Assembly (NCBI GenBank): GCA_001003475.1
Contig: LCPF01000001.1
Span: forward strand, 328,549 to 392,548
Direction: 5' to 3'
Length of the DNA: 64,000 bases
Origin: Candidatus Jorgensenbacteria bacterium GW2011_GWA1_48_11
GTDB lineage: Bacteria > Patescibacteriota > Minisyncoccia > UBA6257 > GWB1-50-10
The notes beneath the pieces were generated by a model. The model saw only the letters and a program-made list of their open reading frames with translations. It did not search any database and was not told the DNA's origin. How positions within the stretch are numbered: the stretch's first letter is position 1; each line of letters starts with the position of its first letter. Position numbers and translations under genes: made by a program. Shown here piece by piece: positions 601 through 51,226 of the stretch.

Positions 601-813
601 TTTGCGGCAGGAGTTGTCAAAAATAAAAAATTGGTATATTCTGGGGTTTTCTGGGGATAACTCGAGCTTGCCGCCCCCTTTTCAAGTTCGGTCCAGAACC
701 TAGAATGAATTTGTACCTCGTTGGAAAATTTAAAAATCTGAAAGCGGATTATTCGGAGAGCGGTTTGTGAATTTTCTAATGGGGTAAAACGGTCCCAAAT
801 CAATTTTTATTTC

Positions 814-3310: not shown

Positions 3311-3311
3311 G

Positions 3312-3384
3312 TCCGCCCACTAGGAATCGAACCTAGAACCTTCTCCTTAAAAGGGAGCTGCTCTGCCAATTGAGCTATGGGCGG
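3312..3384 (-). tRNA. tRNA-Lys (anticodon UUU)
   Basis: The reverse complement folds as a cloverleaf: acceptor CCGCCCA/TGGGCGG, D-arm GCTCAATTGGCAGAGC, anticodon loop CTTTTAA and T-loop TTCGATT. CCA is not encoded. Confidence 0.8.
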
Positions 3385-3523
3385 GTTTAACTTTTAGAGT
3401 TTAACTTATCATTTATTTTAATTCAAGGTTGATTTTTAGAACAGTGTTCAGTTGACCGTTTAAGAATTAGAAATTAAAATGATTCTGCAATTTGATATTC
3501 GAAAAAGCATAAGAAGGTTCAGC

Positions 3524-3784
3524 TCCGCGGTAGCTCAGCGGTAGAGCGGCTCCCTGTCGAGATAATGGCAGCCCCAGGCAGTAATGTTTGGAGGAAAAAC
3601 CGGGCTAATTCGGGGAACTCTTGTATAAAGACAATCCCGAGCTAAATTCGCCCCAGGGCGATAAACGTGTAGAGACTATATACCCGGGCCCCTTAGAAAA
3701 AGGGACATGAGATAGTCCAGCCCCCTTGGCGACAAGGGAAAAACTGTAAGGAGATGGTCGTAGGTTCGAATCCTACCCGCGGAG
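3524..3784 (+). tRNA. tRNA-Asn (inferred anticodon GUU) interrupted by a 189-nt group I intron in the anticodon loop
   Basis: The 5' exon (3524-3557) reads TCCGCGG-TA-GCTCAGCGGTAGAGC-G-GCTCC-CTGT. The 3' exon (3747-3784) reads TAA-GGAGA-TGGTC-GTAGG-TTCGAAT-CCTAC-CCGCGGA-G. The spliced anticodon loop is CUGUUAA. The exon boundary is inferred from a U at the 5' exon end and a G at the intron end. Confidence 0.65.
3558..3746 (+). ncRNA. Group I intron (subgroup IC3-like, tRNA-type) inside the tRNA anticodon loop
   Basis: Core blocks resemble the small bacterial pre-tRNA group I introns (Azoarcus tRNA-Ile-like): GCTAAATTCG, GTGTAGAGACTA and a 3'-terminal G. Length is 189 nt and no ORF is present. 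Confidence 0.6.
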
Positions 3785-3837
3785 CTGAGCCTTTTTGTAT
3801 GGACGTTGAAAGCGGAATAACCAAGTTGCCGGTCAAA

Positions 3838-4746: not shown

Positions 4747-5172
4747 ATGAAAGCGCTGAAGTTGTGGTGTCTTGCCGGAGCGGCGATCTTCGCCGTCGGT
4801 TGCCGGCTCCCTCTCGAGCCCTTGAGGGAGCACGTGGACGTGACGGTCGGCAGGCTTTCACTTCTGCACCTCACGCTCGGCCTCTCGATCAACGGCGAGC
4901 CCCAGGCTCAAGTCCTCGACGACTCCGTGTCGGAGCGCAGGTTCTCGCCCAGGATCAAGGTGGACCAGCAGTACAACCAGTACGGCATCGGCCAGGTCTA
5001 TTGCGGCTATGTCACGGTGAGCGCCGTGATCGTCGAGACCGGACTGCGTTCCAATCCGAAGACGGCCCACGTCTGTACCAACAACGGCCAGAGCCGGGCC
5101 GGCTACTTCACCTTCGGGCCATACGATTTCCCGGGCTACTTCAGCTCGGTGAACGCCACCGCCAGTCCCTAA
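4747..5172 (+). CDS. Hypothetical secreted/lipoprotein (141 aa) in a GC-rich patch
   Basis: An N-terminal signal peptide with a lipobox-like AVGC is present and an SD (GAGGTGA) lies upstream. The overlapping R/P-rich ORF 4740-5321 is rejected. Confidence 0.5.
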   Translation: MKALKLWCLAGAAIFAVGCRLPLEPLREHVDVTVGRLSLLHLTLGLSINGEPQAQVLDDSVSERRFSPRIKVDQQYNQYGIGQVYCGYVTVSAVIVETGLRSNPKTAHVCTNNGQSRAGYFTFGPYDFPGYFSSVNATASP

Positions 5173-7989: not shown

Positions 7990-8104
7990 ATGGATCCCGT
8001 TAGAAACATCCCCCTACGCCCATTTAAGAATATCAACCAGATGATCGAAGGTAATATAAACGGTCTAAATCAAACGTGGCATTTGTTCCGCTTCTAACGG
8101 GATG
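7990..8104 (+). promoter_or_regulatory. Conserved ~110-nt intergenic element, copy 1, whose 3' end includes the ATG of the downstream gene
   Basis: The 5' arm TCCCGTTAGAAAC pairs with the 3' arm GCTTCTAACGGGA. An internal block AAACGGTCTAAATCAAACGTGGCATTTGTTCC is shared with 50661-50767. Confidence 0.5.
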
Positions 8105-8314
8105 GATTTTTTAAATGCGCATCCGTTTTTGGTGATTCTGGGCGTGATCTGGACCTTGCCTTGGAAAGGCGTGGCGCTCTGGAGGGCCGCGAAACTGAAC
8201 CAGCCAAAATGGTTCGTTGCCCTTCTCATCGTGAATACCTTGGGCATCCTGGAGATCCTCTATATTTACGTCTTCAGCAAGAAGCAGGCGATCAAGAGCG
8301 GCGATTCCCAATAG
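8102..8314 (+). CDS. Small membrane protein (70 aa)
   Basis: Two TM helices. The start codon is embedded in the 3' arm of the conserved element. Confidence 0.5.
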   Translation: MDFLNAHPFLVILGVIWTLPWKGVALWRAAKLNQPKWFVALLIVNTLGILEILYIYVFSKKQAIKSGDSQ

Positions 8315-50165: not shown

Positions 50166-50654
50166 ATGATCGATTCAAATCCGCTCAAAACCTCGCCCAA
50201 GGATTTTTTCCTTCACCTCTTGAGCATCATCGCCCTTTATACGAGCGCGACGGCTTTTTTGGTTTTGATTTTCCAGTACGTGAACATTTGGTTCCCGGAC
50301 GTCCTTGAAGGGGGCGGTTACTACGCCCGCTTTGCCAATTACGGCCCGATTCGTTGGTCTTTGGCGACGCTTCTGGTTTTCTTTCCGATTTACCTTTTCG
50401 TCGGCCGGTTCTTGAATAAGAACTACGAATCTAATCCAGCCAAGAGAAATCTTCGCATCCGGAAGTGGCTTTTGTATTTCACGCTTTTTGCGGCGGCCCT
50501 GATCATCATCGGCGACCTCGTTGTCCTGATCAACAACTTTTTGGAAGGGGGATTGACCATTAGGTTCATCTTGAAGGTTCTGGCCGTGTTTTTCGTCGCC
50601 GGTTCGGTTTTTTACTACTATTTTTCCGATTTGAAAAAGCACGGTACGGAATGA
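50166..50654 (+). CDS. Hypothetical membrane protein (DUF5671-like)
   Basis: Four TM helices. Confidence 0.5.
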   Translation: MIDSNPLKTSPKDFFLHLLSIIALYTSATAFLVLIFQYVNIWFPDVLEGGGYYARFANYGPIRWSLATLLVFFPIYLFVGRFLNKNYESNPAKRNLRIRKWLLYFTLFAAALIIIGDLVVLINNFLEGGLTIRFILKVLAVFFVAGSVFYYYFSDLKKHGTE

Positions 50655-50660
50655 CATGAA

Positions 50661-50767
50661 TCCCGTTAGAAGCGGCCCCAATATCCAAAAAATACTTGCA
50701 AGATGATTCATCATAATTTAAACGGTCCAAACCAAATGCGGAATTTTGTTCCGTTTCTAACGGGATG
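50661..50767 (+). promoter_or_regulatory. Conserved ~110-nt intergenic element, copy 2, ending at the ATG of the downstream gene
   Basis: The 5' arm TCCCGTTAGAAGC pairs with the 3' arm GTTTCTAACGGGA. The internal block AAACGGTCCAAACCAAATGCGGAATTTTGTTCC is shared with copy 1. Confidence 0.5.
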
Positions 50768-51226
50768 AAATTCTTCGTTTATGCCGTTATTTTGATAGTT
50801 GCGGCGGCCGTCGTCGCCGGTTTTTTTATGGTCGGTTCGCCGCAGGAAGAAAGACTGAGGCGGTTCGACGACAAACGGGTGAGCGATCTGCAGTTCCTGC
50901 AGTCGGAAATAATAAGTTATTGGCAGAATAAGAACAAATTGCCGGACGATCTCGTTGCCCTGCGCGACGACATCCGCGGCATTTACCCGCCTAACGATCC
51001 CGAAAGCGGCGCCGCTTACGGTTACGAAGTCCGGGGGCCGCTTTCTTTTTCGCTCTGTGCGAATTTTGTTTTGCCCAGCCTTGACCGGAACGAACCGGCC
51101 GTCGCCGCTCCCTATGGCCCAACCTCCTATTACGCCAGCCAGAATTGGACCCATGATGCCGGCAGCGTTTGCTTCGAACGGACGATCGACAAGGATATTT
51201 ACGGTTTGAAGACGTTAAGGCAATGA
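50765..51226 (+). CDS. Hypothetical membrane-anchored protein (153 aa)
   Basis: An N-terminal TM helix. Unrelated in sequence to the protein downstream of copy 1. Confidence 0.5.
   Translation: MKFFVYAVILIVAAAVVAGFFMVGSPQEERLRRFDDKRVSDLQFLQSEIISYWQNKNKLPDDLVALRDDIRGIYPPNDPESGAAYGYEVRGPLSFSLCANFVLPSLDRNEPAVAAPYGPTSYYASQNWTHDAGSVCFERTIDKDIYGLKTLRQ

Follow-up and report, generated by a model that had tools for sequence, protein, structure and literature searches.

A hairpin-forming repeat at gene starts of a Candidatus Jorgensenbacteria genome is probably a non-autonomous mobile element of a previously undescribed family

In a 64,000-nt stretch of the genome of Candidatus Jorgensenbacteria bacterium GW2011_GWA1_48_11 (contig LCPF01000001.1, positions 328,549 to 392,548 of the forward strand; hereafter the window, in whose coordinates all positions are given), a 105-nt hairpin-forming element occupies positions 50661-50765 (+) and ends on the start codon of a 153-aa gene. 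We propose that this element, referred to as copy B, is a non-autonomous mobile element similar to MITEs (miniature inverted-repeat transposable elements) and of the foldback type, and that it belongs to a previously undescribed family; we give this reading a probability of about 0.7. Copy B has inverted repeats at its ends and is flanked by a 4-bp target-site duplication, and therefore carries the signature of a cut-and-paste element. The evidence comprises its anatomy and family, the duplication, its multi-copy state, orthologous junctions that lack it, and an excess of copies abutting gene starts. A preliminary description of the window had identified it as the second copy of an element near position 7990 with the same architecture, and its coordinates and architecture proved to be right; 50661-50765 aligns with 7995-8102 (copy A) at 79% identity. 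A literature search turned up no account of the arm sequences, nor any of MITEs in bacteria of the Candidate Phyla Radiation (CPR).

Copy B and its flanks read GAA TGA C A / TGAA / T-CCCGTTAGAA-GC, 79 nt, GT-TTCTAACGGG-A / TGAA / A TTC. The core terminal inverted repeats are TCCCGTTAGAAGC on the left (50661-50673, +), from where the imperfect repeat runs on to approximately 50686, and GTTTCTAACGGGA on the right (50753-50765, +); over 27 nt the arms are 78% complementary, and the end bases T and A pair with each other. The duplicated TGAA is found at 50657-50660 (+) and 50766-50769 (+). Its left copy, together with A50656, forms ATGAA, a relic of the original start codon, and lies beyond the upstream DUF5671 gene (50166-50654, +; 162 aa), the stop TGA of which (50652-50654) precedes the relic ATG by 1 nt. 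Its right copy provides bases 2-5 of the 153-aa open reading frame (ORF; 50765-51226, +; no Pfam domain). The start codon of this gene, ATG at 50765-50767, is rebuilt from the last base of the element, A50765, and the duplication, and its A and T are the last bases to form pairs at the foot of the stem. The right repeat also holds a TAA (50758-50760). The longest ORFs of copy B, of 16 and 21 codons, leave no coding capacity for a transposase; a short ORF encoding MNPVRSGPNIQKILAR opens at the relic start codon (50656-50706, +), and an internal mini-ORF encoding MIHHNLNGPNQMRNFVPFLTG (50703-50768, +) closes with a TGA that overlaps the real start codon (ATGA).

This layout would be accounted for if the element had inserted into a tight junction of the form DUF5671-stop / C / ATGAAA-gene, where the 4-bp duplication would have left the old ATG as the relic ATGAA on the left side, and the terminal A of the element together with the duplicated TGAA would have rebuilt a genuine start codon on the right. 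Mobilisation presumably occurred in trans through a DDE-type cut-and-paste transposase making 4-bp staggered cuts. The preliminary description had presented the element as one that embeds a start codon, which is accurate in that the codon lies within the foot of the hairpin, but the evidence does not favour a dedicated regulatory origin; the codon is embedded because the insertion duplicated the TGAA of ATGAAA.

Homologues of the 153-aa gene are present in many Parcubacteria. On the long contigs of three lineages (P0012, P0013 and P0029), the homologue directly follows the DUF5671 gene, beginning 3-16 nt past its stop with ATGAAATTTTT or ATGCGT, and no element is present. Deletion of 50661-50769, i.e. 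the element and one TGAA, from the window yields TGA-C-ATGAAATTCTTC (GAA TGA C ATG AAA TTC TTC GTT). Because this deletion restores both the architecture of the relatives and their N-terminus MKFF, we take the element to be an insertion into A/TGAA/A and the right-hand ATG to be the real start. Three other homologues (P0063, P0076, P0112) are annotated as fusions with DUF5671. Two independent metagenome contigs with the DUF5671 gene (L127, L128) end about 43 nt past the DUF5671 stop, inside copy B, as is typical where assemblies break at a repeat.

Copy A (7995-8102, +; 108 nt) lies between TGGA flanks at 7991-7994 and 8103-8106 and abuts the start of a DUF5652 gene (8102-8314), with the layout TAG GCTT A / TGGA / T-CCCGTTAGAA-AC, 82 nt, GC-TTCTAACGGG-A / TGGA / T TTT and perfect arms of 12 nt. 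The 79% identity of the two copies is that of the aligned stretch as a whole, and conservation is far higher in the 3' half than in the 5' half; a 23-nt internal core, TAAACGGTCYAAAYCAAAYGYGG, occurs only in copies A and B and is expected 0.00 times in shuffled sequence. The proteins downstream, a DUF5652 protein in the case of copy A and one without a Pfam match in the case of copy B, gave no BLASTP alignment at E<=100, in agreement with the earlier view that they are unrelated and that no gene was duplicated. That the conservation resides in the nucleotide element itself was likewise borne out: indels between the copies shift the reading frame inside the best-conserved core, so that conservation is at the level of nucleotides and not of a peptide, and a protein-coding reading of the region is ruled out. 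The substitutions in the terminal arms are indeed swapped between the copies, copy A having GAAAC/GCTTC with an A.C mismatch and copy B GAAGC/GTTTC with a G.T mismatch. They are not compensatory; these are ordinary single mismatches that place each copy one transition from a perfect pair, and the family has A:T 69, G:C 35, A:C 6 and G:T 3 times at this stem position.

A probable decayed third copy, which we assign tentatively and on weak evidence, lies at 716-784 (+) upstream of a ribonucleotide reductase gene, with arms CTCGTTGGAA / TTCTAATGGG and flanks TGTA / TAAA. The window would then contain two good copies and one decayed copy within 64 kb, beside unrelated genes. Just after the decayed copy, at 787-805, stands AAACGGTCCCAAATCAA, a motif similar to the core TAAACGGTCYAAAYCAAA within copies A and B, though it is outside the element. 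A metagenome scan for further copies with the right end of the A/B subfamily returned 0 matches.

To place these copies in a wider context, we scanned one genome per species for the exact pattern CCCGTTAGAA-N65-95-TTCTAACGGG and obtained at least 119 loci, against a chance expectation of about 17 (596 Gb x 31 spacings / 4^20, uniform composition). Since the pattern requires exact 10-nt arms and an interior of 65-95 nt, both the diversity and the size range of the family are understated, and many matches lie at the upper length bound. The anatomy given below derives from 122 listed instances, which include members of the same subfamilies and are not statistically independent, and from simple in-house ORF calls. 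Hosts belong to many classes of Patescibacteria/CPR and to Omnitrophota, Planctomycetota, Thermodesulfobacteriota and other 'Deltaproteobacteria', Nitrospirota, Bdellovibrionales and others. The family unit can be written [TNNA] Y-CCCGTTAGAA-RY ... RY-TTCTAACGGG-R [TNNA], with 13-bp terminal inverted repeats, and the scanned elements measure 85-115 bp. Interiors are unrelated across genomes and alike within a genome (copies A and B of the window, L089/L110, L086, L011/L070); the 3-5 related copies of L089/L110 have flanks that differ beyond the flanking hexamer.

An inverted repeat that arose by chance, or a segmental duplication confined to this genome, would be compatible with there being only two good copies in the window, but the shuffles give 0.00 for the internal core, and the loci found elsewhere (at least 119) have the arms, the paired bases at the ends and the flanking repeat in common. 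We regard this explanation, to which we attach next to no probability, as refuted by the shuffles, the family scan, and the paired ends with their flanking repeat.

Positions -1 and +1 form Watson-Crick pairs in 118 of the 122 listed instances and covary (C:G 66, T:A 50), stem positions 11 and 12 covary too, and pairing fades past position 14. Outside these end bases, the left positions -5 to -2 equal the right positions +2 to +5 in 73/122 listed instances, while registers off the diagonal of the duplication give only 0-5 matches. The duplication takes the form TNNA (TGAA/TTCA 26, TAAA/TTTA 21, TGAG 8, others), and is TGAA in copy B. The outer positions of the hexamer agree in only about half of the instances, and among those listed there are no direct repeats extending beyond the hexamer, as a longer duplication would leave. 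In some cases a left ATGAAC is matched by a right GTGAAx (for example GTGAAT) before a real gene, an ATG start having become GTG, from which it follows that the +1 purine is borne by the element. Stem mismatches in gene-oriented copies comprise 12 G.T and 11 A.C; since these are about equal, the pairing constraint is strand-symmetric, as for DNA repeats and not as for a sense-strand RNA helix.

The same anatomy bears on whether we are dealing with a hairpin element that moves as single-stranded DNA in the way of the REP/REPIN or IS200/IS605 kind, driven by an HUH enzyme in a peel-and-paste manner, with the tetranucleotide being a cleavage or target site and not a duplication. The conserved unit is a hairpin with a loop of 4 to >100 nt, the tetranucleotide is lineage-specific, and orientation relative to the asymmetric target is fixed, as it is for the insertion of IS608-type elements; nor is a transposase linked in cis, which is also true of REPs, these being served by a single-copy RAYT. 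Like REPs and REPINs (RAYT/TnpA-REP), the elements are short intergenic palindromes with variable loops and high copy number, at stop-to-start sites in operons and without a linked transposase. However, REPs carry a GTAG-like tetranucleotide on the 5' side, make no duplication and are species-specific, whereas the present family has RTNNAY flanks, a variable 4-bp repeat on both sides and one 13-bp stem across phyla, with no conserved 5' tetranucleotide of the GTAG type. IS200/IS605 elements have their target tetranucleotide at the left end only and an internal guide, and make no duplication; the orientation bias would fit them, but here the tetranucleotide stands on both sides and does not covary with stem positions 11-13, as an IS608-type guide would require. 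Furthermore, the copies of one genome carry TGGA/TGGA and TGAA/TGAA, each on both sides, which fits duplication and not a cleavage site borne by the element, and no HUH protein was seen in the loci, whole genomes not having been searched. Taken together, we consider an HUH-type element quite improbable.

A site-specific recombination site at gene-cassette boundaries, in the form of an integron attC-like or Xer/dif-like hairpin, has even less to commend it. In size (about 100 nt) and as an imperfect palindrome the element does resemble attC, it is located between a stop and the start codon that follows, the arms contain GTTAGAA / TTCTAAC, which match the attC core sites GTTRRRY / RYYYAAC at 6/7 positions each in our comparison, and the host phyla include known carriers of chromosomal integrons. 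Compared with attC, the core-like motifs nevertheless stand in inverted order, GTT coming at the 5' end and AAC at the 3' end, and the 4-bp direct repeats on the two flanks vary. Copies are found inside housekeeping operons such as the secY ribosomal-protein cluster and not in cassette arrays, and no integrase was found near any copy. We judge such a site to be very unlikely.

Copies of the family are strongly associated with gene starts. Of 80 flanks that read ATG, GTG or TTG outward, 60 open an ORF of 50 aa or more, and the adjoining genes are of the housekeeping type, encoding SecY, PGI, AckA, an aminoacyl-tRNA synthetase and a GlmU-like nucleotidyl/acetyltransferase. In at least 13 cases the upstream stop codon sits inside the left duplication, which implies that the ancestral junction was an overlapping ATGA, and in at least 12 it is the TAG of the arm that now terminates the upstream gene. 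Among CPR copies, which mostly have T...A ends and TGAA, TGAG or TGGA duplications, 44/69 (64%) abut a gene start, compared with 8/41 of the non-CPR copies, which mostly have C...G ends and a TAAA duplication. At unoccupied non-genic sites in the same CPR loci, start codons make up 3% of RTNNA and 21% of the favoured RTG[AG][AG]A; given this difference from the occupied sites, the start-codon habit is a real excess, and either targeting or selection at translation starts is at work. Wherever scoring was possible, orientation with respect to the gene does not vary (10/10 members of the GCGGAC subfamily, 5 of 5 BLAST-related pairs, both window copies). An insertion may be tolerated in only one orientation, the one that preserves downstream translation, although an asymmetric target preference could also cause such a bias. 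In our reading, many relic ATGs are preceded at a distance of 6-10 nt by a -10-like hexamer, an arrangement known from leaderless genes. A promoter scan of both window copies gave nothing convincing, and terminator-like matches were rejected as alternative hairpins that use the right arm.

In the Patescibacteria metagenome-assembled genome (MAG) FK_Sedi_B_Bin.322, four junctions of a ribosomal-protein/secY operon are occupied within 6 kb (L089, 326-6372). In three of these, at 326 and 6263 of L089 and at 5991 of L110, we read an internal 19-codon ORF led by GGGAG that ends at the TAA of the arm, 4 nt before the next ATG.

In the predicted fold of the copy B RNA (-32.3 kcal/mol, z=-4.07), a 16-bp stem closes the element, and the A and U of the AUG are paired. 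In an mRNA, this stem would bring the upstream stop and the relic ATG beside the real ATG. A short internal ORF ending no more than 7 nt from the real ATG, or overlapping it, might then permit termination-reinitiation. An AGATGAT is common to both window copies, and its ATG opens the mini-ORF, which in copy A (ATG 8041, 18 codons) ends at the arm TAA at 8095-8097, 4 nt before the real ATG (UAACGGGAUG), and in copy B is moved by a 1-nt indel so that the TGA of the ATGA at the real start terminates it. In copy A, a 35-codon ORF opened by the relic ATG (7990) also ends at this arm TAA. A role of the copy B mini-ORF in translational coupling is possible. Across the family, 27 of 51 gene-abutting copies have a relic-to-real ATG distance of 1 mod 3, and in 21/51 the relic ORF reaches the TAA of the arm, the ATGA or an in-frame fusion; internal ORFs of at least 10 codons that end at the arm TAA are more frequent on the sense than on the antisense strand (23/55 vs 9/55, p=0.0015). 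Our hypothesis, based on these sequence statistics, is that only those insertions at starts are retained whose orientation and form allow the downstream gene to be translated, via termination-reinitiation beside the rebuilt start, with the stem holding the old and the new junction together. The hairpin, the orientation bias and the ATGA at which the mini-ORF ends all make an effect on downstream translation plausible. Known termination-reinitiation junctions (ATGA or UAA-N4-AUG) resemble those of the window, where the internal ORF of copy B ends in ATGA and that of copy A in UAACGGGAUG, and where the foot of the stem brings the upstream stop beside the real start; unlike known coupling junctions, the present ones are supplied by the terminal repeat of a putative mobile element, and coupling is suggested by sequence statistics.

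Features of this kind could also be expected of a functional cis-acting RNA, in which the stem sequesters the start codon and controls or couples translation, or marks a processing site that yields a 5'-AUG for leaderless translation, and which has spread because it is useful. In its favour are the AUG paired at the foot of a stable stem in copy B, the gene-relative orientation that is fixed wherever scorable, the surplus of mini-ORFs on the sense strand that stop 4 nt short of the AUG, the abutment of starts by 64% of CPR copies against an expected 3-21%, the -10 box 6-10 nt before many relic ATGs (a leaderless-like arrangement in our reading), and the greater conservation of the 3' half over the 5' half between copies A and B; in addition, one member of the family encloses a tRNA gene, as a processing stem would. 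On the other hand, the sense fold of copy A (z=-0.78) does not outdo shuffled sequence, and the antisense folds are as good as those of the sense strands. No Rfam family was matched at gathering thresholds in the whole window or in 20 related loci, with nothing credible at E<=10 on copies A or B. Moreover, interiors are not conserved between genomes and the downstream genes are functionally unrelated, the sense strand has no preference for G.U over A.C, non-CPR members seldom abut starts (8/41), and the direct repeats and empty orthologous junctions would require insertion in any case. We therefore regard a cis-acting RNA as unlikely. The dedicated cis-regulatory leader implied by the preliminary description is disfavoured for related reasons, namely the inverted repeats, the 4-bp duplication, the family extending across phyla, the unrelated interiors and neighbours, and the element-free orthologous junctions.

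In size, inverted repeats, duplication and multiple copies, the elements correspond to the structural definition of a MITE. They share with bacterial MITEs such as the Correia elements of Neisseria, ERIC/IRU, RUP and MITEAba12 a length of about 100-150 bp, the lack of a transposase gene, hairpin-forming inverted repeats with a short duplication, and many intergenic copies; bacterial MITEs are co-transcribed with their neighbours and able to affect their expression. They differ from them in the 4-bp TNNA duplication and the 13-bp repeat YCCCGTTAGAARY, in their presence in many phyla with unrelated interiors, in the exact position of most CPR copies on a start codon that they rebuild, and in that no parent insertion sequence is known. 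The Rickettsia palindromic elements are likewise palindromes of about 100-150 bp that touch coding sequence and survive there as expression is kept. However, those elements are inserted in frame inside ORFs and translated, whereas here the ORF boundary is occupied, a start is regenerated or a stop supplied, and in-frame fusions are few.

With a 4-bp T..A duplication and CCCG ends, the family recalls the piggyBac superfamily, its prokaryotic relative IS1380 and the MITEs derived from them. For piggyBac, a TTAA duplication with rare TAAA and TCAA variants and terminal repeats beginning CCC have been described (PMC10813416). Unlike these, the present elements have one extra paired base (Y:R) between duplication and CCCG, TTAA was never seen as the duplication among the listed instances, and no such transposase was found in the loci. 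The similarity of CCCGTTAGAAA to piggyBac's CCCTAGAAAG may be coincidence. The MAG DX4.bin27 contains a larger repeat, about 330 bp long, within which the element is nested (L007 at ~2050-2390 and 4830-5170, L004 at 1-230, L048 at ~1280-1498); the ends of this larger repeat, TTAA / CCCGAAAAATGC...GCATTTTTCGGG / TTAA, are a piggyBac/IS1380-like signature. Two inverted copies of this larger repeat flank a gene for a 686-aa Big_5-domain protein.

Several further loci depart from the standard form. Stems with short loops, consisting of CCCGTTAGAA, 4-25 nt and TTCTAACGGG, some with CCCGTTAGAT/ATCTAACGGG covariation, were found in L045 (6015-6041), L050 (1263-1290) and L068 (2990-3013), with others in L072 (3953-3979), L099 (6817-7099) and L105 (7078-7124); these are probably internally deleted copies. 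In a Bdellovibrionales MAG (L085, 5058-5165), the arms enclose a complete tRNA-Ala(CGC) gene (5074-5147) with spacers of 6 and 8 nt, representing either an element with a tRNA as cargo or arms that act as a processing stem. Five IMG/VR matches (L135-L139) were set aside as viral members; they represent one phage locus, shared by five related contigs, with the 10-nt arms enclosing a 71-nt interior, lacking RTNNAY flanks and a direct repeat, and are probably an unrelated or chance palindrome.

A number of observations weigh against the interpretation of copy B as a MITE-like mobile element. A source of mobility was not found: no transposase, integrase or HUH protein is encoded between or beside the arms in the loci, whole genomes not having been searched. 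Arm pairs 0.5-3.5 kb apart enclose housekeeping genes only, and the ORFs next to solitary arms are housekeeping or of unknown function, with no transposase among them. All-against-all clustering of 1025 ORFs from the 119 loci gave no element-linked recurrent family, and the 40 larger ORFs of the window matched 65 Pfam families, with no transposase or integrase among the 25 of these that were listed. The four identical copies in DX4.bin27 were dropped as a case of recent transposition because the larger TTAA-flanked repeat carries them. The relatives that supply the element-free junctions have a protein identity of only 58-63%, the listed contigs show no filled/empty polymorphism, as each one with the exact flanking proteins has an element-sized gap at both copies, and the reconstructed empty site of copy B had 0 matches in JGI metagenomes. 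The insertion is fixed in the sampled population, and there is no direct sign of recent movement at the copy B locus. The proposed coupling is weakened by the copy B antisense strand, which also has a 17-codon ORF, and by the pooling of the three coupling frames, where sense exceeds antisense only as 39 to 30 of 55 (p=0.09, weak). Finally, simple random insertion doesn't predict the excess of start codons (64% vs 3-21%), and the tetranucleotide is biased by lineage (TGAA vs TAAA).

A further possibility is a mobile element specialised for translation starts, which would either be targeted to ATG, to ATGA junctions or to leaderless starts, or survive there as expression-neutral. Its mover would not be encoded nearby and would perhaps be of an unrecognised kind. 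Neutrality would be provided by the terminal purine that rebuilds ATG or GTG, the TAA/TAG stops of the arms, the sense mini-ORF handing ribosomes over and the juxtaposing stem. We advance this specialisation tentatively, as a possibility less probable than not. Three features make the family unusual as a MITE-like mobile element: a 13-bp end conserved across phyla, the lack of a linked enzyme, and the orientation-specific occupation of rebuilt start codons.

Apart from the element, the window contains a group I intron at 3438-3739 (+; Rfam, 56.7 bits), adjoined by a tRNA-Lys gene at 3311-3384 (-). Around the intron are tRNA-like halves, a 5' half at ~3524-3560 and a T-arm/acceptor 3' half at ~3750-3795, and in-silico splicing gives ARAGORN tRNA calls with an ambiguous anticodon, Arg-CCT being possible. 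The region 3438-3795 is probably an intron-split tRNA gene.

If our interpretation is correct, it gives a name to a family of repeats with which the small genomes of Patescibacteria/CPR and of several other uncultured phyla are littered. This repeat would break assemblies, shift apparent gene starts and yield spurious calls of MNPVR small proteins. From the relic start and left arm, gene callers would derive small proteins beginning M(N/S/D)PVR(N/S); for the right arm, their translation would read FLTG or ISNGV. It would also mean that a selfish insertion can occupy the start of an essential gene such as secY without inactivating it, as the 4-bp duplication and the last base of the element restore the codon. 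In CPR bacteria, many genes seem to be leaderless or tightly coupled. The excess at starts and the fixed orientation would offer a testable handle on initiation and coupling in these organisms, and on the enzyme that recognises a 13-bp end across phyla. Should the elements prove to be specialised for translation starts, they would constitute a widespread modifier of translational coupling in compact CPR genomes, even within ribosomal-protein operons.

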